Below are positions 1-47,258 of a stretch of 47,593 nt of DNA, piece by piece. This DNA is from Candidatus Kapaibacterium sp. (GTDB lineage: Bacteria > Bacteroidota > Ignavibacteria > Kapaibacteriales > UBA4661), in NCBI GenBank assembly GCA_025363605.1, contig JANYDO010000359.1:1-47593 (forward strand), in the 5' to 3' direction. A program made the position numbers and the translations under genes. Below the pieces are notes generated by a model. The model made no database searches and was not told the origin of the DNA. It saw only the letters and a program-made list of their open reading frames with translations. How positions within the stretch are numbered: position 1 is the first letter of the stretch; the number at the start of each line of letters is the position of its first letter.

Positions 1-534
1 GCGCACGGTGCAAATGCTTCATCCTTTGCCGATTGGTGGGCATACAAAATGGAAGTTGCCGATGCTATCCCATACAATGGCGCAATCCTTAACGCAATGG
101 GACTGAACGTTGCCTTCAACTCCGACGATGCTGAGATGGCGCGTCGCTTGAACCAAGAAGCCGCAAAAGCCGTCAAATACGGCGGCGTACCGGAAGAAGA
201 AGCGCTGAAATTTGTAACACTGAATCCCGCAAAAATGCTCCACGTGGACGCAAAAGTGGGCAGCTTGAAAGTTGGTAAGGATGCAGACGTGGTGCTTTGG
301 TCAGACAATCCGCTTTCCATCTATGCCCGCGCGGAAAAGACATTCGTGGACGGAACGCTCTACTACGACCGCGAACGCGACGCACAAGTCCGTGAGGAAA
401 TCCGCTTGGAACGCGCCCGCTTGACGCAAGCAATGATTCAAGCCAAAAAGGGTGGCGCTCCCACGCAAGCCGCACCGCCGCGCCGCAATTTCGAGAAAGT
501 TCATTGCGACCAACTTGGCGAAGTGGGCTGGTAA
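1..534 (+). CDS. Amidohydrolase family protein, C-terminal part (5'-truncated by the window)
   Basis: Frame is open from base 1 (AHGANASSFADWWAYKMEV...). Motifs FNSDDAEMARRLNQEAAK, VTLNPAKML and GSLKVGKDADVVLW are typical of amidohydrolase C-termini. Confidence 0.85.
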   Translation, partial: AHGANASSFADWWAYKMEVADAIPYNGAILNAMGLNVAFNSDDAEMARRLNQEAAKAVKYGGVPEEEALKFVTLNPAKMLHVDAKVGSLKVGKDADVVLWSDNPLSIYARAEKTFVDGTLYYDRERDAQVREEIRLERARLTQAMIQAKKGGAPTQAAPPRRNFEKVHCDQLGEVGW

Positions 535-562
535 GAATTAATAAAAAAGTATCAAAATTTTG

Positions 563-632
563 GGCTTCGGCAGCACAGACATTCTTGTCTGTGAGATTTA
601 GCGCTCTGTGCTTACCCTGTGCTACTGAAGCC
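563..632. repeat. Intergenic inverted repeat with a REP-like hairpin
   Basis: GGCTTCGGCAGCACAG (563-578) pairs with CTGTGCTACTGAAGCC (617-632) with 2 mismatches; internal hairpin CACAGACA-TTCT-TGTCTGTG. Related sequence at 3975-4019. Confidence 0.6.
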
Positions 633-658
633 AGCAAAATACTTCATCTGTATCAAGG

Positions 659-785
659 TTAGGACTTTTGCAAATCGCATCTGTCATACCGACGTAGGTC
701 GGTATCCATGACGTGTACACGTTGCCGATAGATTCCGACCTGCGTCGGAATGACAGCAAACATGGACAGTTTGCGAAAATCCTAA
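659..785. mobile_element. MITE-like shell (TAGGACTTTYGCAAA ends) enclosing a REP-like doublet
   Basis: TTAGGACTTTTGCAAA (659-674) and TTTGCGAAAATCCTAA (770-785) are inverted with 2 mismatches. The same end family occurs at 47145-47258. Confidence 0.65.
681..756. repeat. REP-like doublet, GTCATnCCGAC family (copy 1)
   Basis: Left arm CTGTCATACCGACGTAGGTCGGTATCCA (681-708); inverted right arm TAGATTCCGACCTGCGTCGGAATGACAG (729-756). Each arm is itself a hairpin. Confidence 0.9.
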
Positions 786-833
786 AGGTCTATTTTGTTG
801 AACAACTTGTTGCACAACGACACGAGGAAAACG

Positions 834-1166
834 TTGAAACTGAAACCCGAAAAACTTCTCGAAGAACTCAAAGCTATTGCCGAAACTATCGGCGTTCAGG
901 TGATTATTGACAAAGGCAATTTTTCTGGTGGACACTGCCTCGTTTACGAGGAGCGCAAAATCGTTTTGAACAAACTCCTGCCACCGGAAGTCAAAGCCGC
1001 CAAGCTCGCACAAAGTCTGACGTTCTATTCGCTGGAAGGCATAGAACTCAAGCCCGCGCTCCGTGATTTTCTGGATAACGAGCGTCTGCGCCTTGCTTCG
1101 CGTACAAAAGATGCTCTGAGTGACGAGGCTCAAGCAGTTGTGAACGACGTTCTGGCAAGCGTGTAG
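834..1166 (+). CDS. Hypothetical protein (about 110 aa)
   Basis: ORF 795-1166. Probable start TTG 834 after GAGG. The sequence LKPEKLLEELKAIAETIGVQVIIDKGNFSGGHCLV looks globular; no function assigned. Confidence 0.7.
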   Translation: MKLKPEKLLEELKAIAETIGVQVIIDKGNFSGGHCLVYEERKIVLNKLLPPEVKAAKLAQSLTFYSLEGIELKPALRDFLDNERLRLASRTKDALSDEAQAVVNDVLASV

Positions 1167-1279
1167 CAGCGTAAGCGTATGAATAGCGTATAACAAGAAC
1201 TCAATCATTGCATAATTTTTTCACTCAACCGTCCTTTCACATTTCAATTCAAAGTTGAATGTAGGACATTACAACAATC

Positions 1280-3802
1280 ATGGCACGAAAACCACCCTCC
1301 CGCATTGCGAAAAAGAAAGCTCCGGCAGCACAAGAGATTGCTTTGCCCGTAGAAAACCTTGCGGCGCAAGATGTTCAGATACAAAGCAATCAGCCCGACG
1401 AACATACGCCGGAGCCGCTTGTAGAGCAGCTGCAAGCTGAAGCGCCCAAAGGTGCAAAACCAAAGACGAGCCCGAAGAATCAAGCTCCTGCTGGTAAGAG
1501 TCAAGCCCCGAATGCCAAAACTCCTCAAGTAGAGAAGCCTTCAGCGGAGAAATTATCAGCAGAGAAACTATCGGCGGAGAAGCCGCTAATGGCTGCTGCA
1601 CCTGTTCAAAAGCCTGCTCCCGTAACAAAACCTGCACCAGCAACGAAGCCCGAACCAAGCGGACAAATACTCCCCTTGCCGCAATTCTTGGCGCAAAAAC
1701 ACGGCTTGCACAACCTTGGGCAAATCTTCATCAATCTTTCTACGCCGGAACTGTATGAACACATCTTGTTCCTGCGCGAAGGCGTTATGTCTGCGCACGG
1801 GGCAGTGATGGTGGAAACGACACCCAACACGAAACTTGCTGTACGCGACAAATTCATCGTGGAGGAAGAGATAAATAAAGAACATATTGCATGGGGCGAG
1901 GCAAATCGAGCTATTGAGCAATCAAAATTTAATGCCCTCAAAGCACGCATCGGAGCGTATTTGCAGAAGCGGAATGTCTATGTCCAAGACTGTTTCGCGG
2001 GTTCGGACACACGTCTCAGAGTACCGTTGCGCGTTGTTACTGAAAATGCGTGGCAGAGTCTTTTTGTCCGCAACACCTTTATTGAAGCGCTTCCGGCAGA
2101 ACTTCGCCAATTCGACCCGCGCATGACGATTATTTCCCTGCCCAACTTCAAAGCTATTCCCGAAATAGACGGCACACGGGCGGAAACATTTGTTCTCTAC
2201 GATTTTTCGCAGCGTCTCGCCATTATCGGCGGCACACGCCATGCAGAAGAAATTAAAAAAGCTGTCTTTACGGTAATGAGCTATGCCATGCCGCTTCGCC
2301 GCGTCTTGCCTATGCGCTGCGCTGCCAGCATTGGTGCAAACGGTGAAACCGTGCTTCTTTTCGGCACGAATGGTGCCGGCAAAACAACTCTTTCGGTGGA
2401 CACCGCGCGAACTCTCATTGGTGACGATGCTCACGGTTGGGGCGATGATGGCGTGTTTGCTTTTGAAGGCGGCGGATATGCCAAAGCGCAAGGAATATTG
2501 CCGGAAACAGAGCCTTCGCTCTATGCGGTATCGCGGACGTTTGGTACGATTCTCGAAAATGTGAAATTCGACACCACGACACGCATTGCGAACCTTGCCG
2601 ATACATCTATCAGCGATAATGCCCGCGTTTCATATTCTCTCGCACAACTTTCTCCGTTGCAGCCGGTCACGCCCAAACTGCGCGGCGCACACCCAAAAAA
2701 TGTCATACTTCTTGTCAACGATGCCTTTGGCGTACTACCGCCCGTAGCGCGGCTGACGCAAGAGCAAGCTGTCTTTTTCTATTTGTCCGGCTATGCTGCA
2801 AAAAATCCCATCGGCGAACCGAAAATCGAGCCGCGATCTGTCTTCAGTGCTGGCTTTGGCGAGACATTCATGGTGCAAGACCCCGTCTCATACGCGAATC
2901 TTTTCCGCGAGCGTCTGCGCCGTAATAATACGAAAGTTTGGCTTGTCAATACGGGATGGCAAGGCGGAACACAGGCAACGGGAAGCCGTATCAAGCGCGA
3001 TTACTCGCGTGCGATTGTGCTCGCGATTACTTCCGGCGCTCTTGATTCGGCGCAGTATAGCATTGATGCGGTGTTTAATCTCAGTGTGCCGTCGGCGTGT
3101 CCGGGTGTACCGGCAGCAATGTTGAATCCGCGTAATGCTTGGGCTGACCGTGCGGTATATGAAAAAACCGCACAAAAGCTCCTCCAACTTCTGACAGAAA
3201 ACTTCAAGAAATATGCAGGACGTGTTGATAAATCTATTGCGCAAGCTCTTGCAGCTCCCGCGCAAACTGCACAAAAACAGAATCCTCCGTCCAATGCACC
3301 TGCGCTTGCAACCGCCGCTGCACCGCAGATAGTAAAATCGGGTGCAAATATGCCACCGGAAATTCTTACACCCGACATTTCGGTAGCTGCATCGCCGGAA
3401 ACTCCCGCAGAAACAGCTTCGGGCAAGAAAATTCCACCCAAAAAAGTCAAACCCGTCAAAAAAGGACGTGGTAAGCAAGTGCTGATAGAAGAAGATGATG
3501 AAGCAGAGGTCGGCGACACAGGTTCGCACGAAACCATAGACGCGCCATACGATAATGACGATGATGCAGGCGCAGATGTCATCATTCCGTCCAGCCTTTT
3601 TGTGAGTGAACCCGAAGGCGAGTTCCGTCCGGATGATGATATGCTAACACCATCTACCTTTGATGATGAAGATGACGACGACATTGCTGATAATGGTGAG
3701 GCGCAAGACGGCAATGACGCTGCCGGAGACGAGCAAGGACAAGCTCAATTCAAGGGTGGTCGCCGCCGCAGAGGTGGTCGTGGTCGTCGTCGCCCGCGAT
3801 GA
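1280..3802 (+). CDS. pckA: ATP-dependent PEP carboxykinase homologue with divergent active site and long low-complexity N- and C-terminal extensions
   Basis: PEPCK motifs LFGTNGAGKTTLS, LIGDDAHGW, FEGGGYAK, DAFGVLPPVARL and VWLVNTGW. Core about 1700-3220. See findings for the catalytic substitutions. Confidence 0.85.
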   Translation: MARKPPSRIAKKKAPAAQEIALPVENLAAQDVQIQSNQPDEHTPEPLVEQLQAEAPKGAKPKTSPKNQAPAGKSQAPNAKTPQVEKPSAEKLSAEKLSAEKPLMAAAPVQKPAPVTKPAPATKPEPSGQILPLPQFLAQKHGLHNLGQIFINLSTPELYEHILFLREGVMSAHGAVMVETTPNTKLAVRDKFIVEEEINKEHIAWGEANRAIEQSKFNALKARIGAYLQKRNVYVQDCFAGSDTRLRVPLRVVTENAWQSLFVRNTFIEALPAELRQFDPRMTIISLPNFKAIPEIDGTRAETFVLYDFSQRLAIIGGTRHAEEIKKAVFTVMSYAMPLRRVLPMRCAASIGANGETVLLFGTNGAGKTTLSVDTARTLIGDDAHGWGDDGVFAFEGGGYAKAQGILPETEPSLYAVSRTFGTILENVKFDTTTRIANLADTSISDNARVSYSLAQLSPLQPVTPKLRGAHPKNVILLVNDAFGVLPPVARLTQEQAVFFYLSGYAAKNPIGEPKIEPRSVFSAGFGETFMVQDPVSYANLFRERLRRNNTKVWLVNTGWQGGTQATGSRIKRDYSRAIVLAITSGALDSAQYSIDAVFNLSVPSACPGVPAAMLNPRNAWADRAVYEKTAQKLLQLLTENFKKYAGRVDKSIAQALAAPAQTAQKQNPPSNAPALATAAAPQIVKSGANMPPEILTPDISVAASPETPAETASGKKIPPKKVKPVKKGRGKQVLIEEDDEAEVGDTGSHETIDAPYDNDDDAGADVIIPSSLFVSEPEGEFRPDDDMLTPSTFDDEDDDDIADNGEAQDGNDAAGDEQGQAQFKGGRRRRGGRGRRRPR
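1531..1586 (+). repeat. In-frame 15-nt tandem repeat (EKPSA/EKLSA, about 4 copies)
   Basis: VEKPSAEKLSAEKLSAEKP in the N-terminal extension. Confidence 0.75.
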
Positions 3803-22421: not shown

Positions 22422-24421
22422 ATGCTTTTACGTCTGGTAACTGCCACGTTCATTTTCCGGCTTTGGTGCGCTGTTGCCATATATTGCCTTACCTTATCGT
22501 GCTTTGCCTACGGGCAAAATACTCTGCCACGAGAACAAACACCGAAGCCAGTCACCAACGCAAAACTCCGCCACCTCGCCGATTCGCTCCAAGAGCAGGC
22601 GCTCAAGTTCTGCAAGAATACCGATAACTACGCCAGCGCAATCCCCCTTCAACTCGAGGCGCTGCATATTTGGCGCGACCTTGCCGATTCCACGAACATT
22701 GCCCGTGCGCTTGATGTTCTCTCGCGCGGCTTTGCTGCTATCGGCGACACCGACCGCGCTCGGCGCTACATAGACGAAGCACTTCTGCTTTTCGACCGCC
22801 AACACACTGTGCGTCCGTATTTGACGACACTGGTCTATCTTGCTTTATTGGAGCAGGCAAGTGGGCGGGTGAGTGCTGCTGCTGCGGCTTTAGAGCGAGC
22901 AGATGCCTACATCGTTCTGCGGCACGTTCAAGACTCGCTGCTCATCCCATCGTCGTTGTACGGGCAAAAAGCAGAGTTTGCGCTTCGTGGCGGTGATTAC
23001 GAAGCCGCGCTGAGATATAATGCAATCTCGGCACGACTTTTCGCCTTGAAGAAAACAAACGCAAGCGCGACGAATCAAGGAGCAAATAAATGTGCCGAAG
23101 CAGTCTTTCTTGCTCGTGTGTGGTGCGCACAGGGCAGGTGGAGTGCTGCATTGCAGTTGCTCTCACCTGTACGGGCAGACAGCACTCGTGCCGGTTTGCT
23201 CAAAACATCGATTCTACTTGATTGGTACCAAACTGCCGCAAAAGCCTTTGCCGGAGCGCGGCGGTACGACTCCGCGTACGTCTATGAATGCGCCGCCCGT
23301 GCCATACACGACACCCTTCAATCCCGCACAAAAGCACAAACACTCGCTAATCTCCAAATCCGCTATGACGTAGAGCGCAAGGATGAACGCTTCCGAGCGC
23401 TTGAGCGCGAGCAACAACTGCAAAACCGCACAGTGCTATTTCTTGTCTTTGGAATTGCGCTGCTTCTTGCATTACTGCTCTTGGCGGCGTGGGCATATCG
23501 CTTAAAGCAGCGTGGAGAGCGGCTTTTGCAAGAGCGCAATCGAGAGCTTCGCGGCTTTTGCAAGAGCGCAATCGAGAGCTTCAACGACTGAACGCGGAGA
23601 AAATGGAGTTTTTAGGCGTTGTGGCGCACGACCTCAAAAATCCGCTTCTTGGTGTAAAAATGGCTGCCGAACAAATTTACAGCACCACAAACCACCACAA
23701 ACAAGCAGACGAAAGAGCGCAAATCGAAAAAGCACAAATCGAAAAAGCACAAACAATTATCCACACAACCGAAGCAATGCTCCGTGCCGTCAAAATGCTG
23801 CTCCGCGCACAGACTCCCGAACTGGACCCAAAGCATGATGCACAGCTAAGTACAGAGTCAAATGCAGAGTCAAGCACAGCAACAAATTTTTGGCTGCAAG
23901 CCCCCACCGCGTTTGATGCTGTCAAGCGCGTTCGTATTATTGTGGACGACTTTGCCGACCGTGCCGAAGCCAAAGGTATTTCGCTCGCGTTTGTATCATC
24001 CGAACCCGCTATTATACTGACGCTTGACGAAGACGCTTTCTACCGTATTGTAGAAAATCTCATTTCCAATGCCGTCAAATACTCGCCAAAACGGGCAACG
24101 GTGCATATCTGTTTGGAAAGTGCCGCCGACCCAAATGTAGATGTGGAAAGTCACCGCACAAGCCCTCAAAGGTGTTATCTTTTCGTAACAAATGAGGGCG
24201 ACGGCATCAGCCCGGAAGAGCAGGCGCAGCTTTTTCTGCCGTACAAGCAGCTTTCTGCCAGACCGACCAACGGCGAGGATTCGACGGGTTTGGGGCTTTC
24301 GATTGTCAAACGCTATGCCGAGGCGCTCGGAGGCGGCGTGCGCTGCGAAAGTAGTCTTGGGAAAGGAGCGACATTTATCGTAGATTTGCCGCAGCAATTT
24401 TCTCACTTCAAAAGCGCCTGA
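22422..24421 (+). pseudogene. TPR-containing membrane sensor histidine kinase split by a 32-bp duplication
   Basis: 5' ORF has a signal peptide, TPR-like helices and a TM segment. 3' ORF has VAHDLKNPL (H box), ENLISNAVKYS and STGLGLSIVK. The two join into one frame if one copy of 23519-23550 is removed. Confidence 0.85.
23519..23582 (+). repeat. Perfect 32-bp tandem duplication
   Basis: GCGGCTTTTGCAAGAGCGCAATCGAGAGCTTC at 23519-23550 and 23551-23582. Confidence 0.95.
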
Positions 24422-25353: not shown

Positions 25354-28300
25354 ATGATTATGCTGTTTCGCTTCTTCCGCCCTCGAACTATCCCACTTGT
25401 GCTGCTGCTGTCGGTGTGCTGTGTGGTACTCGGTCTTGCACAGACTGCGCCGACTATTTCCAGTATCAGCCCTACCTCTGCTCCAACAGCATATTCAGAA
25501 ATTGACCCCATAACGGTCAACGTTATGAACGTTATGCCCTTTATTTCCGGCAGTTCTGGCTTTGGAGAGATACGCTATGTTCTAAGTAATTCACGTGGAG
25601 ACAGCTTGTATGGGGGTAAAGTTAGCAGACCGAGTAGTACTTTCTTGTTTCCCCTTGAAACTCCTTATAGCGGTCCTGTGAAAGTGTTTGTCTCTTCTTT
25701 ATCAAATCCGATAAATGGAGTTTTTCAATCTCTGGCTCCGGGCGATGTTTTCATAAGAATTATTGGTCAAAACGGAAGGTCAAACAGCGCAATATTTACC
25801 TATACCGATATGAGCATTGTCAGTTTTTCGCCGTCATCGGGTCCCCCGGGAACGGTTGTTACGTTAAATGTGCGCGATGGTGTTCCTATCAATAACAGTA
25901 ACGGTCTCGGGAGTTTTCGCGTATTACAGGTCAATTCACGAGGAGACACAACTGCGATAGGTTACGACGGCTCATTGCCACTCACTTCACGTGTCTATAA
26001 CGGACCATTTCAAGTTACTGTTCCGCCAATATTCTATCCAATAAGAGGTAGTAGTTATCCTACACCTTCTGGACCGCTCACCATCACGTTATCAGGTGGT
26101 CGCTATAATTCAGTGAACCCTATCGGTTCCATCAGTGGTGGTACAGCAAGTGTTGTTTTCACCGTCACCGCCCCCACCCCACCACTACCCATAATCACAA
26201 GTTTTACTCCGGCTTCGGGTACAGTCGGAACGCTCGTTACCTTAACCGGAACGGGCTTCCGTTTTGCCGGCGGTAGGCAGATTCAGTCCGTACAATTTGG
26301 CAGTGGAGCGGTTGTAACCGGTGAAAGTATCGGTGCTCAGACCGAAACGCAGTTGGTGGTACTTGTTCCGCCGGGAGCGCAGACGGGACCTATCACCATG
26401 ACGGACAATAGCGGTCGAAGAATTACCACCACCACACCGTTTACGGTCATACCCCCGGTGCCGACTATTTCAGGGTTCTCGCCCACAAGCGGTATGACAG
26501 GGGCGCTCGTGAGCATTATTGGGACGAATTTCACGGGTGCAACCAGTGTGCGCTTTGGAGGGCTTTCTGCCAATTTGTTTGATGTCAATACGGACGGGAC
26601 ACTCATTGCAGTAACAGTTCCGGCGCTTGCGTCGAGCGGCACTATCAGCGTTACCACGCCAGGCGGCACGGCGACAAGCGCAAATGGCTTTACCATTAGT
26701 GCGCCCGCACCGACCATCACCGCTTTCACGCCCACAGGCGGCATTCCGGGCGCGGTTATCACTATCTCCGGCACGAACTTCACGGGTGCTACAGCTGTGC
26801 GGTTAGGCGGAATAAACGTGCCGTTTACCGCCATAAGCCCAACGCAAATCACCGCTACCGTTACCGATGCCGGGGGTTCGGGTGTTATCACCGTTATTAC
26901 TCCAAGCGGCACCGCCACTTCCGGCACATCGTTTACGTTCATGCTGCCGTCGCCCGTGATAAGCAGTTTCACGCCCACAAGCGGTGGTATCGGCACGAGT
27001 GTCGTTCTTTCCGGCAGCAATTTTACGACTGTTAGCCGTGTTTTCTTCGGTTCGTTTTCCGCACAGGCATTTTCGATTGACAGCGACACGCAAATCACCG
27101 CCATTGTGCCGAATTTTGTTACCACAGCAACGATTATACTCCAGTCGCCACGCGGCACGGCTATTTCGGCAACGCCCTTTACTTATGTGCCGGGAGCGCC
27201 CATTATTAGCGGCATTACCCCAACCGGTGCCCCGGCGGAAACACTTATCACTATTCAAGGCTCCGGGCTGACGGGCGCAACGAATGTACTGTTTACAAGC
27301 ACCACTTTCCCAAGCGGCATCAGTGTTACGCCGACGGTTGTGAGCGATAGAATAATTCGCGTGAGTGTACCCATTAGTGCGTCATCGGGTCCTGTTACCG
27401 TTACCACGCCACGCGGCACGGTGACAAGCGCCTTTGATTTTGTTGTAACGCTGGTAGTCAATGCCCGCTACTTTACGCCTGCTTCCGGCGCAGTCGGCAC
27501 AAATGTTGTCGTGAGTGGTTCACAGCTCGCGGGAGCAACATCGGTGCGCTTTGGCGATGTGGAAGCACCGATTCTGAGCAATACCGATTCGCAAATCCAA
27601 ACCCGTGTTCCGGCAGTCGTAAGCGGGCGTGTGCCAATCATCGTCCGTACTCCATCGGGAGTCGGAACGCCGCCGTACGCGCTCTTTTCCGTGAGCGCCA
27701 CGCCTTCGCTGACAGGCTTTGCTCCGGCAAGCGGCGCGGTGCTTGCAAGCGTGGTGCTGACGGGAAGCAATTTCACGGGTGCAACAGCAGTGAAATTCGG
27801 CTCTACGCCAGCAACAGCTTTTACGGTCAATAGCGGAACGCAAATCACCGCCACTGTTCCGGCAGACGCAGCTACGGGCGTTATCAGTGTCGTTACGCCA
27901 AGCGGCACTGCCGCTTCGGGCGCACCCTTTACGATTATTACTGCGCCGAATATTGTCCGCCTGAGTCCGGGAAGCGGCTCGGTGGGAACAACGCTGGCAA
28001 TCGTTGGCGTGGGCTTCACGGGTGTAAGCAGCGTCAGTATTGGTGCTGCGCTGATGACTTTTACGGTCAATAGCGACGGACAAATTACGGCTACGCTTCC
28101 GGCTGGCGCACTGGCGGGTATTGTGAGCGTTACCACGCCGGGCGGCACGGCGCGGTCAGCCTCGCCCTTTACTATCCTTCCCCCAACGCCCACGATAAGC
28201 GGCTTCGCGCCACCTTCGGCGCTTGCCGGGGCAGTGATTACTATCAATGGTACGAATTTCACAGGTGCAACGGCGGTGAGCTTTGGCACAACGCCCGCAG

Positions 28301-31300
28301 CATCCTTTACAGTGGTGAGTGCCACGCAAATCACCGCTACCGTTCCCGGCGGTGTGAGTGCCGGTGCGGTAAGCGTGGTTACACCCAATGGCACGGCAAC
28401 ATCGAGTGCCGTATTTGCACTGCTTATGCCGCCGCCCATTATCACAAATTTCACGCCCACAAGCGGCAGCCCGGGAGCAAGCATCACCATCACGGGACAG
28501 AATTTTGCGGGTACAAACAGTGTTTCCTTTGGCGCGGCACCTGTGGCAGGTTTTACGGTGTCGGCAGACGGTAGAACCATCACGGCAACGGTCGGCACAG
28601 GCTCTAGCGGCTTGGTGAGTGTGGTTACGCCGAATGGCTTGACAAGCTCAAGCGCAGCCTTTACCTATCTTCCGCCCGTTCCTTCAATAACAAGCATTGC
28701 GCCGACGAGCATCAGAGCGGGTGAAGCCTCAACGCTGACGATACAAGGCGCAAATTTGAGCGATGTACGTCTCGGTGGCACCGACGATGCGGGGAACACC
28801 CTCGCGCCGTCGCTGCTTTCTAACACTGCGACAGCTGTTTCTTTCAGCATCATGCCAATTGGTGCGGGTTTGGTGACCTTCACGCTCACTACGCTCGGAG
28901 GCAGTGTGAATGCTCCGCCCGTAACGGTACAATCGCCACGCCCCTTCATTACCGGCTTTTCGCCGACACGGGCGCGGACGGGCGATATGATAACGATTTC
29001 GGGAACAAATTTGGACGCGGCGAGCGCCGTAACGCTTGGCGGAACGCCCGCAAGCATCGTTGTGGGCAGCAATACCTCTACGCGAGTACAAGGAACCGTC
29101 GGCACAGGCGCGTCGGGTGCGGTGCAAGTAACCACGCCCGGCGGCACGGCATCAGCCGCAGCCTCTTTCAGCTTCGATGCTTCAGCTCGTCCGCCGGTAA
29201 TAACGGGATTTTCTCCGGCAAGCGGACCGGCGGGAACGCGAGTAACGATAAGCGGCACAGGCTTTACGCGGGATGGGCTGAATATCGGCATCAATTATTC
29301 CGCTTGGCACGAGATTGTCAGCGTTACGCCAACGGAAATCGTGTTTGTTGTGGGAGCAAATGCACAAGGGCAGACCGGTCGTATTCAAATCTGGTCGGCA
29401 GCAGGGTACACGGAGTCGTCAGGCAATTTTACCTGTACTATTCCGACAACACTGGACGCGCCCATACCGACAAGTCCCGCTAATGCGGCGACGCTAACCA
29501 GTACCACAAGTTACGTAGCAGTTTCTTTTTTATGGAATGCGGCGGTAGCTGCAACAACGTACTCTATTCAAACTTCGCTTGATGCCGGTTTCTCCTCTGC
29601 TCCCAACGCATATACGGCTTTATGGTCGGTCAGTGGCACAATAGCAAATTCATATATTTATACCCCTCGAAGCGGGCAACCGCCTTTGACGACCTACTGG
29701 CGTGTCCGTGCCCTCAATGGCGCTGTGCAAAGCCCCTGGTCAGCAGTGCAGCGGGTCTTGGCTGCACCTCCGGTGCGTATTCTAAGCGTTTCTCCGGCGG
29801 AAATGCAGCAAAGCGCATCGGTAACGATGACAATAACGGGCGAAAGCACGGATTTCACGATTGCCAGAGGTATTTCCCTTATTTTGGGGAGCACAACTAT
29901 CATTGGAGCGCTACAACCCGGGGCAACCCCCACGCAGTGTACGGCATCGTTCACTATTCCGCCGGATGCGCCGCTTGGGTTCTACAGCGTCGTTGTGAGT
30001 GGTGCTCCGTCGGAGGTAAGGCTTCTGAATAGTTTATCCATAACCTCTGCAAGCGGTGAATTAGAGGTTCCCGTTACCACAGGCTTCAATACGCTTGTCC
30101 ACGGCTTTAACTTTTGTAACTGCTCTGATAATATCTGGCCCACTTCGGCATGGAGCAGTATTGATTATACTTCATCGGTGTATCCGACGGCTGTTCGCAC
30201 ATCCGGTGTCAGCACCAGCGTTTTCCCCTCGTTCGATGACTATGCGGCAATCAAAGATTTGAACACGGGTGCCGGTACTTTCTATTCGCCGTTCTATTCC
30301 GATGGTAGCCGTTATCCCGGCTCGTCGCCTAGCGTTGTTAATGCCTCATACATATCACAGTGGTTAGGTTACGGACCCTGGGGTGGCTCGTGCGACGGAA
30401 TGTCGCAGGTGAGTTTGCTGAATTATGCAGGCGTTGCGACGTATCAATTCTCGGGAAGACCGTTTAGCCTAGGTTCAGCGCTCACCAACGACAATTTGCG
30501 AAAACTTATCAATCGTCATCAAAACTGGCAAACATCCGGAGCTTTCGGAGGGGGTGGAGTATCGGTTAATCAAACACTGGCGCAGCTTCGCGCTGATTTG
30601 GCAAGCGGCGACCCGATGCGTCACCGAAGACTTTGGATATCCCCTCAAGATGGCTGCGTAGGTCATGCTATTATCCCCACAGGAATTACCACAAGTAGAA
30701 ATGTGGCGGGGCAGGTTATTGAGCGTATAGCAGTGTATGACGTGAATCTGCCGGGCAACCTCACGCCTTTTGTGGAGGTCAATCGAACACTCAATACGTG
30801 GGTATATCCTCAATATGATAACCCAGCTAGGCGATGGAGCGGTACGACGGGCTTGGGCTTGTCAAACACCGTCGGTGAAATTCGCACCTTTTCCAGCCGC
30901 CCCGGACCGATTGCCACTCTTCAAGACGACCCGCTGCAAAATATCGTTGTCGGCTTTACTTCGCCCTTTCGTACTGCTTCGGGTGTCTCGCTTGCTCCTG
31001 TGGTTCAGCTGACCACTTCACGGGGTGGGCGTATTGCTTCTGAGGGCAGCGATGCCGTGGCGCCAACTATTCCGGGCGCAATGCTGAACAAGACACTTGG
31101 TGGCTTACCGCCGAATTTTACGTCGTCTGTGAGTGGCTTTACCTTCTCCAATGTGCTTGGTTCGGAAGCGTTCACCATCAGCTATACGCCGGTTACACAA
31201 GACCAGTCGAATCGTTTGACAGCAACAGGTGTCTCTGGCTTTATGGCGGTGGATTGGACGGCTTCTTCGACGACGCAATCTCAGTCTATTGTAATAAACA

Positions 31301-38549: not shown

Positions 38550-39671
38550 ATGAAACCGCATTTACTGACAATCTTCTCGAAAAGCATGGTACTATGCGCT
38601 TTTGCAGCAACCGCAGTCTCGTGCAAAAAAGCGATTGAAACCGCCAAACCCGAATACCGCGCCCTTACTGAAGCCGTCTATGCGTCGGGAACAATTGCAC
38701 CGCGCGGCGAATACAAGGTCTATGCGATGGCGGACGGTGTCATTACGCGCCGCGCCGTGGACGAGGGAAGCGTTGTGAAAACAGGCGACGTGCTCTTTCG
38801 TATTGACAACGATGAACAAGCAGCCCGCATGAACGCAGCCCGCGACGTGTATCGCACGGCTGAATCGAACTACAACGCCACATCACCGGCACTCGCAGAG
38901 TCAGAATCTGCTCTGCGCTCCGCACAATCGAAGTATAGCAACGACTCGCTCCAGTTTGCCCGCGTGAGCGACCTCTTTGCCTCCAAAGCCATGACCCAAG
39001 CAGATTACGACAAAGCAAAACTCGCTTTCCAAGTCTCGCACAACGATTTCACTGCCGCGAAACAGCGCTACGAGCGCACCAAACGACAACTTTATGTGGA
39101 TATGCAAAATGCGCAAAGCCAGTTCAAAGTGAGCGCAAAGCAGGAATCCAACGCTCTTGTGAAAAGCTCCAGCGACGGCATGGTGTACGAAGCCTATAAG
39201 CAGCAAGGCGAGGCAGTACGCCGAAACGACCCGCTTGCACTCATCGGCAGTGAGCGTGATGTGTATATCAAACTCAGTGTGGATGAATTGGATATTCAGA
39301 AAATTCGCGTCGGGCAGGAAGTCTTGGTTAAAATTGATGTCTATCAAGACCGCACGTTCAAAGCCCGCGTCGAGAAAATTTACCCGATGCTGATGAAGCA
39401 AGACCAGTCATTCCGCGTGGATGCAGCATTTGTGGATGGTCTGCCCGAACGATTCGTGGGCGTAACGGCAGAAGCAAACATCATTATTAGCCGGAAAGAA
39501 CGTGCGCTTGTTATCCCGAAAGCGCTGTTACTTAATGGCGACAGCGTTCTTGTCAAAAATGCGGACGGCAACGCAGCAAAAGTAAAAATTCGCAAAGGTG
39601 CGGAAAATTACGATGTTGTCGAGATTTTGAGCGGTCTGAGCGATAGCAGTCAGCTAGTTGTGAAAAAGTAA
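38550..39671 (+). CDS. Efflux periplasmic adaptor (MFP/HlyD family) lipoprotein
   Basis: Lipobox AVSC; VYASGTI, VDEGSVVKTGDVLF, coiled coil, VDELDIQKIRVGQ. Confidence 0.9.
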   Translation: MKPHLLTIFSKSMVLCAFAATAVSCKKAIETAKPEYRALTEAVYASGTIAPRGEYKVYAMADGVITRRAVDEGSVVKTGDVLFRIDNDEQAARMNAARDVYRTAESNYNATSPALAESESALRSAQSKYSNDSLQFARVSDLFASKAMTQADYDKAKLAFQVSHNDFTAAKQRYERTKRQLYVDMQNAQSQFKVSAKQESNALVKSSSDGMVYEAYKQQGEAVRRNDPLALIGSERDVYIKLSVDELDIQKIRVGQEVLVKIDVYQDRTFKARVEKIYPMLMKQDQSFRVDAAFVDGLPERFVGVTAEANIIISRKERALVIPKALLLNGDSVLVKNADGNAAKVKIRKGAENYDVVEILSGLSDSSQLVVKK

Positions 39672-39706
39672 AAAATATCGGCGCTATACCGCCAGCATCA
39701 TTTTAC

Positions 39707-39876
39707 GGTTTTAATTGGATGTAGTTAGAAATCTCTCTTACAAATGCGGGAAACAAGACGCTGTCATACCGACGTAGGTCGGTATCTATATCGAAAGGAC
39801 ACGGCACAACACGCTTCCAATGGATGCCGACCTGCGTCGGCATGACGAGATTTTCCAACTAAAATCATTTAGAACC
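39707..39876. mobile_element. Degenerate outer inverted-repeat shell enclosing REP doublet copy 2
   Basis: GGTTTTAATTGGATGTAGTTAGAAATCTC (39707-39735) imperfectly matches the reverse complement of 39847-39876 (GGTTCTAAATGATTTTAGTTGGAAAATCTC). Confidence 0.5.
39761..39846. repeat. REP-like doublet, GTCATnCCGAC family (copy 2)
   Basis: CTGTCATACCGACGTAGGTCGGTATCTA (39761-39788) and inverted TGGATGCCGACCTGCGTCGGCATGAC (39821-39846). Confidence 0.9.
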
Positions 39877-40847
39877 AAAACGATGATATTGCACGACTTT
39901 TCGGCGGGCTGAATCGTAGCGTGGCGACGATACGCGAGATGCTTGGTCAAATCTTGTTTTCCCTGAGCGATACCGTTCAGACGGCAAGTGAAGTCAGCAC
40001 GACGGCGCACCAAATGGCAGCTGGCACGATTGAGGGCGCAACGCAAGTGCAACAATCCACGGCAGCCGTGCAGCAGATGTCCGACGTTATCGCCGACAAC
40101 ACTCGCCAGACCTCAACCGCAGCCTTTGAAGCCGCCGAAGCGCATGGTGAAGCCGAGCGCGGCGGAAGCGTGATGAAAAATATGGTCGAAAATGTGCGGA
40201 ATATCGGCGCAGTGGTGATGGAATCTTCTTCAACGGTCAGTATTCTCGGTAAACGCAGCGAGGAAATTGGCGAAATCGTTTCGACCATTGACGAAATTGC
40301 CGACCAAACGAATCTTCTCGCCCTGAACGCCGCTATTGAAGCTGCTCGTGCGGGCGATGCCGGACGCGGCTTTGCTGTTGTTGCCGATGAAGTCCGCAAG
40401 CTCGCCGAACGCACTCAAAAAGCAACAAAAGAAATCTCCGGCATGATAGCCGTGATACAGCACGAAATGGGCGATGCCGTCCGCGCTATGGCGCGCGGTA
40501 AGCAACTTGTGGACGAAAGCGGCTCGCTGATTACCGCTACGACAGGCACATTTGAAACGATTGTTCGCAAAACCGCCCACGTATCGGACATTATGTCGCA
40601 AGTGGCAAGTGCCAGCGAGGAGCAAGCTGCCACGAGTACGCAGATTGCGGGCAATATGCAGAATATAGCCGGTCTTATTAGCGAAACCAGCACAGGCACG
40701 AACCAAATTGCAGCGACTATTGAAGCCCTCGCCTCGCAAACAATGGATGTGCAGACGCTCGTAGGGCGCTTCCGCATTGATACACTCGCACAGCAATTTG
40801 CACACACTCGCACAGCATTGCCACAAAGCCCCAAACGCTTACGTTAG
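39873..40847 (+). pseudogene. 5'-truncated methyl-accepting chemotaxis protein (half HAMP plus signalling domain)
   Basis: [38 protein letters not shown] hairpin tip. Upstream of GTG 39921 the frame reads [16 protein letters not shown] (second HAMP helix) back to TAG at 39870. No sensor or TM region. Confidence 0.8.
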
Positions 40848-40908
40848 AACTGGTGCGCAGTACAAGAATTTACCATTCAACCTTCAACACTCAATATCTT
40901 CTTCCGTC

Positions 40909-42168
40909 ATGTCCTTTGCACTCATTTTCCAAATCGCCAAAACGCATCTTCTTTCCAAGAAGAAGCAAACCATTACCGCCATGCTTGGCGTTACCTTCGG
41001 TATCGGGATGTTTGTCCTGATGATTAGCGTGATGACGGGCGTGAACGACTATCTCACCGATTCCATGCTCGAATCCACCGCGCATATTCGGATGTACAAC
41101 GACCTCGAATCGTCCTCGCGTCTTTCGATTGCCGAGGAACTCTTCAACGCCGTGCAGAATATGGTAACGATTGCGCATCAAAAGCCAAAAAATATTAAGC
41201 TCAATATTCGCAATGGAATGCAAATCGTGGAGGCACTCAAAAACGACCCGAATGTCGCCGGAGTCTCACCGCAGCTGAGTTCGCAGGTTTTTTACAACTA
41301 CGGAGCGGTGCAATTAAACGGCAGTATAGCGGGTGTGAATATTTTGGACGAAGATAAACTCTTCGATGTGACGGGAAAACTAAAATCCGGCAAGCTGGAA
41401 AGCCTTTTAGCGACGAATAACGGTATCATTATGGGTGCGGGACTCGCAAAAAAACTTAATGCAAAAGTAGAAGACCGCGTACAAGTAACTACGCCCTTCG
41501 GAACAACGATGACACTCAAAATTGTGGGGACATTTGCCACAGGAAACGGCGTGATAGACAACGTAAAAAGTTATGCCAGCATTACAACAGTCCAGAAAAT
41601 CTTGCAACGCGACCCGGGCTATATCACCGCCATTAGTGTTAATCTTCATTCCATGACCGATGCCAAGCGCTTTGCACCGGAGTTTCAGGCGAAATATGGC
41701 GTGAAGTCCGAAGACTGGGAAACTGCCAATGCCGTGATTTTGCAAAGTTTTGTGATTCGCAATTTGATGACATATGTGGTCGTAACGACGCTCTTGGTTG
41801 TTGCCGGGTTCGGTATTTACAACATTATGAGCATGACCATCAACGACAAAATGAAAGATATTGCGATTCTGAAAGCAACGGGCTTTTCGGCGGGTGATAT
41901 TGTAGCGATTTTTCTTGTACAAGCTATTGTTGTTGGTGTCTTGGGGGCATCGCTGGGGCTGTGCATCGGCGGCACGCTTGCATATTTTGTGTCACAGATT
42001 CCGGTGGATTTCGGCGAATTTTCCTCCATGACGCGCTTTCCGGTAGCTTTCCATCTGATTCATTACGTTTCGGGCATCCTCTTCGGGGTTGGCGCGACGT
42101 GTCTTGCGGGCTTTTTGCCTTCGCGTAAGGCTGGGAAGATTGATCCGGTGCAGATTATTCGCGGTTGA
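40909..42168 (+). CDS. ABC transporter permease (MacB/FtsX/LolC-E type)
   Basis: N-terminal TM, periplasmic domain and three C-terminal TMs; DIAILKATGF and PSRKAGKIDPVQIIRG. Confidence 0.92.
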   Translation: MSFALIFQIAKTHLLSKKKQTITAMLGVTFGIGMFVLMISVMTGVNDYLTDSMLESTAHIRMYNDLESSSRLSIAEELFNAVQNMVTIAHQKPKNIKLNIRNGMQIVEALKNDPNVAGVSPQLSSQVFYNYGAVQLNGSIAGVNILDEDKLFDVTGKLKSGKLESLLATNNGIIMGAGLAKKLNAKVEDRVQVTTPFGTTMTLKIVGTFATGNGVIDNVKSYASITTVQKILQRDPGYITAISVNLHSMTDAKRFAPEFQAKYGVKSEDWETANAVILQSFVIRNLMTYVVVTTLLVVAGFGIYNIMSMTINDKMKDIAILKATGFSAGDIVAIFLVQAIVVGVLGASLGLCIGGTLAYFVSQIPVDFGEFSSMTRFPVAFHLIHYVSGILFGVGATCLAGFLPSRKAGKIDPVQIIRG

Positions 42169-42179
42169 AATGAGTACCA

Positions 42180-42634
42180 CTTGTCATGCCGACGCAGGTC
42201 GGCATCCATATCGCCTACGAGCGTTCATCCCAAAATCAATATAATCATTCCCATCAACCAATGAAAACCTACCACATCTACATTCTCGCTAGCGCAAAAT
42301 ACGGTACGCTGTACATTGGCTCGACGAGCAATCTTGTCAAAAGGATGTATGAACATAGCAATTCGCTTATTGAGGGTTTTACGAAAAAGTATCGTGTTCA
42401 CAACCTTGTTTGGTATGAATCCACAAACGATGCTACAACTATGGTTACAAGAGAGCGTCAGATGAAAGAGTGGAAGCGCGATTGGAAAATAAACCGTATC
42501 AATGAACATAACCCGGAATGGCAAAATTTGTATGAAAATGGCGAAATTTCGCCCTTACAGATTCCATAATCAAAGGCAGACATCGAGAAACGGATTCTTG
42601 CGATATGGATGCCGACCTACGTCGGTATGACAAG
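42180..42634. mobile_element. GIY-YIG nuclease cassette bounded by 35-bp inverted hairpin repeats
   Basis: CTTGTCATGCCGACGCAGGTCGGCATCCATATCGC (42180-42214) and GCGATATGGATGCCGACCTACGTCGGTATGACAAG (42600-42634), 33/35 identical. Sits between the ABC permease and ATPase genes. Confidence 0.8.
42261..42569 (+). CDS. Stand-alone GIY-YIG nuclease (102 aa)
   Basis: HIYILAS...TLYIGSTSNLVKRMYEH...FTKKY...LVWYE...RERQMKEWKRDWKINRINEHNPEW; catalytic Tyr, Arg and Glu appear present. Confidence 0.92.
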   Translation: MKTYHIYILASAKYGTLYIGSTSNLVKRMYEHSNSLIEGFTKKYRVHNLVWYESTNDATTMVTRERQMKEWKRDWKINRINEHNPEWQNLYENGEISPLQIP

Positions 42635-42702
42635 CGACCCTCATGTCTGGATATACCACAGCATGGCAAAAATAATCAACTATACCATTCGAGAAATATA
42701 TT

Positions 42703-43389
42703 ATGACTACTCCTGTTCTCCAAGCCCAAGGCATCGTCAAATACTTCCACGAACCGGAAACATTTGCGGTTCTCAAAAACGTCTCATTCGAGGTACAGAA
42801 AGGTGAATTTGTCTCTATTGTCGGCAAGTCCGGCTGCGGGAAATCCACACTCTTGTACGTCCTCTCCACGATGGACACTGACTTCGAGGGCGAACTAACA
42901 CTCAACGGCACAACCATTCACGGTAAATCACAAGACGAACTGGCACGGTTTCGTGGCGAACACATCGGTTTTGTCTTCCAGTTTCACTACCTTTTGCCGG
43001 AATTTACTTGCCTTCAAAACGTGATGATACCTGCGCTCAAGCTCGGTAAATACTCACGCGAAGAAATTCAAGAGCGGGCAATGGAAAAACTTCGCCTACT
43101 CGGAGTGGCCGAGCAAGCGGACAAACGCGCCAGCAAACTCTCCGGCGGGCAGCAGCAGCGCGTGGCAATCGCGAGAGCGCTTATCAACGACCCTACGATA
43201 ATCATGGGTGACGAGCCGACGGGGAATCTGGACTCAAATAACTCTAAAGTTGTGTTCGATATTTTCAGAGACTTAGCTCACACCTACGGTCAAACCTTGA
43301 TTTGCGTCACGCACGACCAAGAATTTGCCCGCGCCACCGACCGAACGATTGAGATGCAAGACGGCGAAATTATTTCGCACGGTAACTAA
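42703..43389 (+). CDS. ABC transporter ATP-binding protein (LolD/MacB-like)
   Basis: GKSGCGKST, GFVFQFHYLL, LSGGQQQRV, DEPTGNLD and VTHD. Confidence 0.95.
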   Translation: MTTPVLQAQGIVKYFHEPETFAVLKNVSFEVQKGEFVSIVGKSGCGKSTLLYVLSTMDTDFEGELTLNGTTIHGKSQDELARFRGEHIGFVFQFHYLLPEFTCLQNVMIPALKLGKYSREEIQERAMEKLRLLGVAEQADKRASKLSGGQQQRVAIARALINDPTIIMGDEPTGNLDSNNSKVVFDIFRDLAHTYGQTLICVTHDQEFARATDRTIEMQDGEIISHGN

Positions 43390-47144: not shown

Positions 47145-47258
47145 TAGGACTTTCGCAAACAAGCTGGAGTGCGAACGGGAGTTCGCATAACTACTGCCTT
47201 CGCCTTGTCAACCGAACTTCCGTTCGGACTCCAAAAGAGTATCTTTGCGAAAGTCCTA
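47145..47258. mobile_element. MITE-like shell (perfect 15-bp IR) enclosing a GGAGTGCGAAC hairpin doublet
   Basis: TAGGACTTTCGCAAA (47145-47159) and TTTGCGAAAGTCCTA (47244-47258). Inner arms TGGAGTGCGAACGGGAGTTCG (47165-47185) and CGAACTTCCGTTCGGACTCCA (47213-47233). Confidence 0.75.

Follow-up and report, generated by a model that had tools for sequence, protein, structure and literature searches.

An ssn-like GIY-YIG nuclease gene with its hairpin repeats in a Candidatus Kapaibacterium genome and the probable spread of gene-less hairpin doublets by miniature transposable elements

The Ssn proteins (SsnA; CDD cd10448, GIY-YIG_unchar_3) are single-domain GIY-YIG nucleases of about 94 amino acids whose genes are bracketed by hairpin repeats, as set out in the main text of Chenal et al. 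(Nat Commun 2025;16:2388; PMC11893778). The repeat takes the form NTS, CGTCATTCCCGCGMAVGCGGGAATCYRG, in Neisseria, and the broader class of such hairpins is termed SRM. Binding by these enzymes requires the hairpin to be in the form of single-stranded DNA (ssDNA), they cut a few nucleotides upstream of it on one strand only, and hairpin-specific ssDNA binding and cleavage have been demonstrated for members from Neisseria and Wolbachia. Here, we describe a locus of this kind in a stretch of 47,593 nucleotides from Candidatus Kapaibacterium sp. (assembly GCA_025363605.1, contig JANYDO010000359.1), which is referred to throughout as the window. The locus consists of a gene for a GIY-YIG nuclease of 102 residues placed between two inverted hairpin repeats, and this cassette lies at the junction between the permease gene and the ATPase gene of an ABC transporter.

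According to the same main text, the GTC ahead of the palindrome controls cleavage and the C after the palindrome controls binding, and in the N. meningitidis enzyme the substitutions Y6A, Y17A, and E64A each abolish cutting. In N. meningitidis the Ssn system lowers transformation by repeat-carrying DNA, and in Neisseria the cutting reduces recombination near the repeats. The survey in that paper found hairpins on both sides of the gene in 42% of cases and on at least one side in 71%, and its SRM search string is a heuristic built from 29 genomes rather than a definition. The Discussion likens NTS-ssnA-NTS to insertion sequences and to RAYT/REP/BIME (bacterial interspersed mosaic element) systems, proposes domestication, and also raises the hypothesis of mobilisation driven by the nuclease (PMC11893778).

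An original prediction for the locus, made from the letters of the window alone, described a family resembling repetitive extragenic palindromic (REP) sequences in which the partner is a GIY-YIG nuclease and not a REP-associated tyrosine transposase (RAYT). The RAYT/REPIN systems (Nunvar 2010; Bertels and Rainey 2011; Ton-Hoang 2012) reportedly consist of HUH-Y1 REP-associated tyrosine transposases with REP hairpins. By analogy with the characterised nucleases, the present locus resembles them in its single-copy nuclease gene between inverted hairpins, in its dispersed gene-less inverted doublets, and in a hairpin that would be recognised as ssDNA, whereas it differs in that ssn encodes a hydrolytic GIY-YIG enzyme and the RAYT is a covalent HUH-Y1 enzyme (PF01797). 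The suggestion that an association of GIY-YIG nucleases with hairpins might be undescribed was not borne out, because both the Ssn family and the analogy with REP/RAYT appear in the main text of PMC11893778; with the pairing published in 2025, the central idea of the prediction is no longer a discovery.

It is quite probable, in our judgement, that the locus pairs an ssn gene with the hairpin repeats that its product recognises, that it is resident in the genome, and that most of the dispersed doublets were spread by miniature inverted-repeat transposable elements (MITEs) and not visibly by the nuclease. Judged from sequence comparison, what appears to be new is a CCGAC hairpin that falls outside the published string, the inheritance of the cassette at one junction with losses, and the riding of both Ssn-type and RAYT-type hairpins in MITEs.

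The nuclease gene and its hairpin repeats

The window is contig C401 of the source genome (G000), an assembly of 5.30 Mb in 567 contigs that is 97% complete. The presence of the cassette (Table 1) is confirmed and is far from chance. Its 102-residue protein matches Pfam PF01541 over residues 3-77 (E 6.1e-14, scoring 52.5 bits where the cut-off is 22.6) and contains no second domain. An automatic gene call (P0001; window 42186-42569, 127 aa, MPTQVGIH...) begins at an ATG within the left hairpin, and the alignment of homologues puts the true start at 42261. Residues Y7, Y18, G20, R28, H32, E65, and N84 are invariant among 11 homologues; Y7, Y18, and E65 sit one residue along from Y6, Y17, and E64 of the Neisseria enzyme, a correspondence by position. 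The databases hold 496 relatives at E<=1e-5, and among the best 120 listed the lengths are 88-140 aa and the named ones are GIY-YIG nucleases or putative endonucleases. No solved structure of a close relative was found at E<=0.01. The group I intron endonuclease family (NCBIfam TIGR01453) was rejected as an identity at 21.4 bits against a cut-off of 56.05, and no other NCBIfam name was obtained. GIY-YIG homing endonucleases of the I-TevI type share the catalytic domain and the placement of a free-standing gene between two genes; unlike them, the window protein has no DNA-binding extension and is single-copy and syntenic.

The 35-nt arm at 42180-42214 and the reverse complement of that at 42600-42634 show 2 differences (33/35 identical). 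The pattern GTCATNCCGACGYAGGTCGGNATC has six matches in the window, each with 0 mismatches (683+, 731-, 39763+, 39823-, 42183+, and 42608-), and no match in 100 dinucleotide shuffles. Folded as ssDNA, the left repeat gives a stem of 8 bp closed by a loop of 4 nt (-9.0 kcal/mol, z -3.5; 0/200 shuffles as good). The right repeat contains an A.C mismatch and has a weaker fold (-5.2 kcal/mol, z -1.3; 21/200 shuffles as good). In these respects the original prediction was accurate: it had described a stand-alone gene for 102 aa between 35-bp inverted repeats, a hairpin of the form ATnCCGAC-GYAG-GTCGGnAT with GTC ahead of it, and a cassette at the permease-ATPase junction whose ends show no evident target duplication.

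A count across the 5.3-Mb assembly that allowed at most 2 mismatches gave 144 copies of the hairpin, 102 of them exact. These form 69 inverted pairs, plus then minus, together with 6 singles, and a gene lies inside only one pair, so that the comparison of doublets with nuclease-flanking pairs proposed in the original prediction comes to 68 gene-less pairs against one. The spacing within pairs peaks at 48 nt (31 pairs) and at 59-61 nt (31 pairs), and the sole pair at 425 nt is the ssn cassette. The gene is single-copy in the genome by tblastn, the other PF01541 matches being confined to two long frames (694 and 615 aa). GTC stands 5' of the palindrome and C stands 3' of it in 141/144 genome copies and in 6/6 window copies. 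At the variable stem position, N5 and N20 form a Watson-Crick pair in 142/144 copies (A-T 72, G-C 36, T-A 34), and this covariation across three pair types indicates that the stem is under selection as a structure; the GTC and C positions are under selection too. Within a doublet, the left hairpin and the right hairpin have distinct alleles that are fixed, which argues that doublets are copied as units.

The locus thus shares with the Ssn/NTS system a single-domain GIY-YIG protein of 94-102 aa with Tyr, Tyr, and Glu at matching positions, a gene between inverted hairpins, dispersal of the repeat through the rest of the genome, and a palindrome preceded by GTC and followed by C. It differs in its stem and loop, which are CCGAC and GYAG in the window against TCCCGCG and MAV in the described system, and in its lineage, since the Ignavibacteria/Kapabacteria group has 0 occurrences in the main text of PMC11893778.

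Table 1. Coordinates of the cassette, its neighbours, and the two miniature elements in the window
Feature	Position	Strand	Description	Basis
ssn-like gene	42261..42569	+	102-aa single-domain GIY-YIG nuclease, stop codon included	Pfam PF01541
Left SRM-like hairpin repeat	42180..42214	+	core 42183-42206 = GTC + ATGCCGAC-GCAG-GTCGGCAT + C; GTC end outward	
Right SRM-like hairpin repeat	42600..42634	-	core 42608-42631; inverted, GTC end outward; one A.C stem mismatch	
Whole cassette	42167..42647	.	bounded by 48-nt imperfect inverted arms, 42167-42214 / 42600-42647, 85% complementary	
ABC permease, FtsX/MacB_PCD type	40777..42168	+	ends 15 nt ahead of the left hairpin core	context
ABC transporter ATPase	42703..43389	+	3' of the ssn cassette	context
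MITE family A copy	660..784	.	125 bp; terminal repeat TAGGACTTT(C/T)GCAAA; core doublet 683-706 +, 731-754 -	
MITE family B copy	39707..39876	.	170 bp; core doublet 39763-39786 +, 39823-39846 -; no clean 8-bp duplication	

Gene and hairpin across phyla and within the genus

The flanks of homologous genes were compared at 80 loci whose encoded relatives share 45-82% identity and come from Planctomycetota, candidate phyla, Proteobacteria, Nitrospirota, and others; like the described Ssn family, these are spread widely and patchily across phyla. The motif, consisting of GTC, AT-stem-loop-stem-AT, and C, was scanned for within 300 nt on each side of the gene, and sequence more than 400 nt away served as the control. 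It was present on both sides at 41/80 loci, on one side at 23/80, and on neither side at 16/80, and hence on at least one side at 64/80, fractions that agree with the 42% and 71% reported in the main text of PMC11893778. The density near genes was 116 matches in 47 kb against 10 in 327 kb of strand-sequence far away, an enrichment of about 80-fold, and near the genes the GTC faced outward in 116 cases against 35 in the opposite orientation. The exact NTS consensus lay within 300 nt of 4/80 relatives. When the stem class was mapped on the protein tree, 23 changes were required, compared with a shuffle mean of 30.1 and a minimum of 26 (0/500 as low), in a tree that is poorly resolved and in which related sequences share labels anyway. 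Flank enrichment and joint phylogeny of repeat and protein had both been put forward as tests in the original prediction; the enrichment is observed and the stem classes tend to follow the protein tree, and these results support the view that nuclease and hairpin belong together.

The hairpins could alternatively be mainly regulatory or structural, acting as terminators, mRNA stabilisers, or protein-binding sites, with the adjacency of the nuclease being incidental. Classical REPs have regulatory and structural roles, and the hairpins described here are stable and intergenic, as such an explanation would have it. However, the stem is not followed by a T-run, and the repeats have no Rfam match at E<=1 in window 39500-42800, the two matches elsewhere being at chance level and to eukaryotic families. 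The enrichment of about 80-fold beside ssn homologues and the outward bias of the GTC also count against it, as do the binding and cutting demonstrated for family members in the main text of PMC11893778, and we regard an incidental adjacency as extremely improbable.

The hairpin with the TCCCGCG stem occurs in 21 copies in G026, where it flanks the ssn gene, and in G004 it occurs only at the two flanks of the gene. In some genomes of the order, two or three ssn paralogues were observed, as in G016 (loci L014, L022, and L028) and G022 (L013 and L021), each flanked by its own type of GTCAT-hairpin (TCTGAGCG, TCCGGC, TGCGAG, TCAGAA, and others), and a single cell may accordingly contain several pairs of nuclease and repeat.

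Orthologous junctions within the genus were found with a 6.2-kb query around the ssn locus. Three species (G000, G005, and G008) carry the gene at this junction; the orthologues in G005 and G008 (82% and 75% amino acid identity) lie at the same permease/ATPase junction and have lineage-specific extra hairpins. Against these two orthologues dN/dS is about 0.06, with dS at 1.5 or more and near saturation. In G004 and G007, a segment of 458 bp corresponding to window 42192-42649 is missing, and a stub, CTTGTCATGCCG, is kept in which the left hairpin is represented by its first 9 nt together with its 3-nt leader. The lost segment is bracketed by an imperfect short direct repeat, TCATGCCG / TCATGTCTG. 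The flanking genes are 82-84% identical in nucleotides to those of the window in G004 and G007, and 72-76% identical in G005 and G008. The empty sites for which a search had been proposed thus exist as junctions that lack the cassette, but the stub that they keep means that deletion fits better than a target that was never occupied. At the junction of G001, a cassette or pseudogene was considered and rejected, and an unrelated membrane-protein open reading frame lies there. The ssn gene of G004 is a different gene (54% identity) at another locus, with only its two flanking repeats.

Several of these observations could be explained if the whole hairpin-ssn-hairpin cassette were a currently active selfish element, of the insertion-sequence or the homing type, with the permease/ATPase junction as its preferred target. 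Horizontal transfer is suggested by the nearest relatives outside the genus (<=62% identity), whose hosts belong to unrelated phyla; the junction is variable, holding the cassette, the stub, or an unrelated membrane-protein gene; and the imperfect direct repeat around the missing segment and the different ssn of G004 at its other locus are in keeping with movement. Yet the cassette is present in one copy per genome and at the same locus in three species, its gene combines a dS of 1.5 or more with the low dN/dS given above, and the seemingly empty sites keep 9 hairpin nucleotides, for which deletion is the better fit. An active selfish cassette is accordingly quite improbable, and the ssn gene is a maintained resident under purifying selection and not a recent arrival.

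Miniature elements around the doublets

When the doublets were aligned with 110 nt of flank on each side, they were found to be parts of longer units. The two further gene-less doublets that had been predicted in the window are present (683/731 and 39763/39823), but it had been missed that both sit in longer elements (125 bp and about 170 bp) with terminal inverted repeats of their own. Two families of such elements were recognised. Family A is 125 bp long with the terminal inverted repeat TAGGACTTTCGCAAA, which is present on both sides of 30 doublets, and a perfect 5-bp target-site duplication surrounds 25/28 testable copies, compared with 0/28 in a shifted control. Its copy in the window is bordered by the duplication AAGGT at 655-659 and 785-789 and folds as one long hairpin (-33.1 kcal/mol, z -7.6). 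Family B measures about 170 bp and has terminal repeats of 25 nt, which are present on both sides of 11 doublets; 11 more are cut on one side by a contig end, and others have one recognisable end. A perfect 8-bp duplication was found around 5/12 copies (shifted control 0/12). In total, a MITE terminal repeat is present on at least one side of at least 57/68 gene-less doublets, and 2 more are cut by contig ends.

The ends of family B are shared with a resident insertion sequence of the ISL3 family at C230:1-1175 (L129), which is 1175 bp long and has an open reading frame of 378 aa (DDE_Tnp_ISL3, E 1.1e-41). Its ends match the family B consensus at 22-23/25 positions, and the right terminal 25 nt of the family B copy in the window equal its right end at 25/25. 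The left end of this element occurs at 7 places, 6 of which are contig edges, which shows that the element is multi-copy and that the assembly is probably broken by ISL3. The family A shell, or chassis, also encloses other cores, in 18 copies, 14 of them with at least 4/5 duplication positions matching. The length of the duplication therefore goes with the chassis (5 bp for A whatever the core, 8 bp for B), which argues that the shell and not the core sets the mode of insertion. Precise empty sites for the gene-less doublets could not be resolved for window 1-2400 against five genomes of the genus, in which gene identity is about 80% and the spacers are too diverged.

The units resemble MITEs mobilised by DDE transposases, the ISL3 type in the case of chassis B, in their terminal inverted repeats, their fixed-length duplications (A 5 bp, B 8 bp), their size of 125-190 bp, and, for family B, the ends held in common with a resident transposase-bearing element. 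They differ from other MITEs in that a single chassis occurs with at least three alternative cores, each a hairpin doublet, and in that these cores, by analogy with the characterised systems, would be hairpins recognised by ssDNA nucleases of the host (Ssn and RAYT-like). Transposition by Y1 enzymes is not known to leave terminal inverted repeats or target-site duplications, whereas the doublets described here have terminal repeats and duplications (25/28 for A and 5/12 for B), which sets them apart from RAYT/REPIN. They differ likewise from the arrangement in PMC11893778, in that the copies scattered through this genome take the form of inverted doublets enclosed by MITEs that have target-site duplications. 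In the main text of that paper, the terms 'MITE', 'miniature', and 'Correia' have 0 occurrences. Our literature searches found no paper that names both GIY-YIG and repetitive extragenic palindromic sequences and, by title and abstract, none on bacteria that names both GIY-YIG and miniature inverted repeats; for SsnA together with GIY-YIG since 2024, the Ssn paper alone was found.

Because MITE ends and duplications surround most doublets, spread driven by the nuclease is unsupported in this genome. Of the REP-like family proposed in the original prediction, the pairing of gene and hairpin is thus supported, by the flanks and by the published Neisseria and Wolbachia biochemistry (main text of PMC11893778), and the propagation by the nuclease is not. 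Similarly, the prediction had been staked on the repeats not following another transposase: they do so in their dispersal, through MITEs and ISL3, but not in their recognition.

The contrary possibility is that the GIY-YIG nuclease mobilises the inverted doublets as replicative units, in the manner of RAYT/REPIN, and that the MITE-like shells are secondary, a hypothesis that is also raised in the Discussion of the Ssn paper (PMC11893778). It would account for a single-copy gene between inverted hairpins alongside 68 gene-less doublets, for the fixed and different left and right alleles with which doublets are copied as units, for the doublets without a shell in G026, and for the greatest abundance of repeats in gene-holding genomes. 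It does not sit well with a duplication length that follows the type of shell rather than the core, with the resident ISL3 ends of chassis B, or with a chassis A that also carries RAYT-type and third hairpins, nor with G004, which has ssn yet only two flanking repeats, and G008, which has 4. Moreover, to our knowledge, GIY-YIG enzymes hydrolyse DNA without a covalent intermediate and cannot rejoin strands alone. We consider such mobilisation by the nuclease improbable.

Several points nevertheless weigh against the reading that we prefer, namely a resident ssn gene with cognate hairpins and doublets spread mostly by MITEs. The published degenerate SRM string matches 0/144 CCGAC repeats, while 6/6 canonical control loci match; the failure is read as a limit of the string and not of kinship, and Ssn membership is argued from architecture, from motif positions, and from relatives 50-62% identical that have canonical NTS repeats. 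As the string misses the CCGAC repeat, surveys based on it would undercount nuclease-repeat pairs. The sequence of losses and gains at this junction was deduced from local identity only. As to the shells, the duplication of family B is perfect in only the 5/12 copies mentioned, four gene-less doublets have no recognisable terminal repeat on either side at the thresholds used, and an autonomous partner for family A was not found among 33 unpaired terminal repeats in this fragmented assembly. In G026, which belongs to another family of the order, three of five fetched loci with TCCCGCG doublets have no evident shell by eye, so that something other than MITEs can make doublets. Finally, the repeat counts within the genus loosely follow the gene: the three carriers have 137, 15, and 4 repeats, four genomes without the gene have 0-1, and G003 has 11 repeats and no gene found in a genome that is 86% complete. 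The trend leaves room for a contribution by the nuclease.

The counts in the carriers agree with what a burst in the G000 genome would produce: G000 has 137, G005 has 15, of which 9 lie at its ssn locus, and G008 has 4. At the ssn locus of G005 (C23:91403-92239, L113), a diverged element of chassis A separates the outer hairpin from the gene, three doublet units follow in tandem downstream, and this hairpin-packed locus resembles a BIME-type cluster.

RAYT-type hairpins and a possible modular arrangement

The genome also contains a RAYT-like Y1 gene on contig C153 (L130), which matches PF01797 (E 2.8e-8) and encodes 178 aa from the first ATG. The hairpin GTGCGAAC-N4-GTTCGCACTCC flanks it at positions 5-27 and 598-620, and a further copy, inverted, lies at 1929-1949. 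This RAYT-type hairpin has the form GGAGTGCGAAC-N4-GTTCGC, and its inverted doublets also form cores of chassis A. A RAYT as the partner of the CCGAC repeat was considered and rejected: the two PF01797 matches lie on contigs without a CCGAC repeat, and the C153 gene has a different hairpin, so that the CCGAC repeats do not track a RAYT. The original choice of a GIY-YIG nuclease over a RAYT as the partner therefore stands. At window 47145-47258 lies a 114-bp chassis-A MITE with TAGGACTTTCGCAAA ends and a RAYT-type doublet core (GGAGTGCGAACGGGAGTTCGC ... CCGAACTTCCGTTCGGACTCC), the flanking 5-mers of which match at 4/5 positions. A third hairpin, CAGACA-N4-TGTCTG, is present in 210 copies, most of which form inverted doublets with a spacing of about 40 nt (for example, C239:38772-38834). 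It is also a core of chassis A, with 23 copies at most 110 nt from a chassis-A terminal repeat, and no partner gene was identified for it in the genome. A frame of 798 aa at C239:10749-13142 (-) has a C-terminal Y1_Tnp match (PF01797, E 1.6e-8) and would represent a fusion of a Y1 domain with a large region N-terminal to it.

By analogy with the characterised Ssn members, a single-stranded copy of the repeat would fold into the hairpin ATnCCGAC-GYAG-GTCGGn'AT, which the Ssn protein would bind through the C just after the stem and would cut a few nucleotides 5' of the GTC, in one strand orientation only; we infer both activities for the window protein from its relatives. DDE-type transposition, which leaves target-site duplications, probably multiplied the dispersed doublets, with the resident ISL3 transposase as the likely agent for family B. 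Bursts of MITEs would in this way scatter Ssn cleavage sites over the chromosome, and ssDNA copies, such as transforming or conjugative DNA and intermediates of replication or repair, would be cut beside the scattered sites.

The multiplication of repeats, a question left open in the main text of PMC11893778, is readable in this genome as hitch-hiking in MITEs with target-site duplications, and a RAYT-like system uses the same chassis alongside the Ssn hairpins. The locus would also widen the Ssn family by one lineage and by a hairpin that the SRM string published there misses. Its CCGAC stem would represent a naturally different pair of enzyme and site, useful if Ssn enzymes become tools for ssDNA.

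A bolder and rather doubtful proposal is that these are modular hairpin-core MITEs, in which one DDE chassis (TAGGACTTTCGCAAA, 5-bp duplication) accepts swappable doublet cores recognised by nucleases (Ssn, RAYT-type, and the third hairpin), and that the pairing is functional. Were this the case, nicking by the nuclease at extruded hairpins might help or restrain the movement of the MITEs; alternatively, MITEs might be a general vehicle for the expansion of Ssn and RAYT sites, which would bear on the large expansions of repeats reported for Neisseria, Rickettsia, and Wolbachia.

Two further repeats of the window were recorded that are separate from the hairpins. Direct repeats of about 246-249 bp, in at least 8 copies with 60-80% identity, occupy window 26450-29200 and are consistent with a gene for tandem repeated domains, each about 82 aa long. 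At window 23519-23582, the 32-nt unit GCGGCTTTTGCAAGAGCGCAATCGAGAGCTTC is perfectly duplicated in tandem, in two copies.

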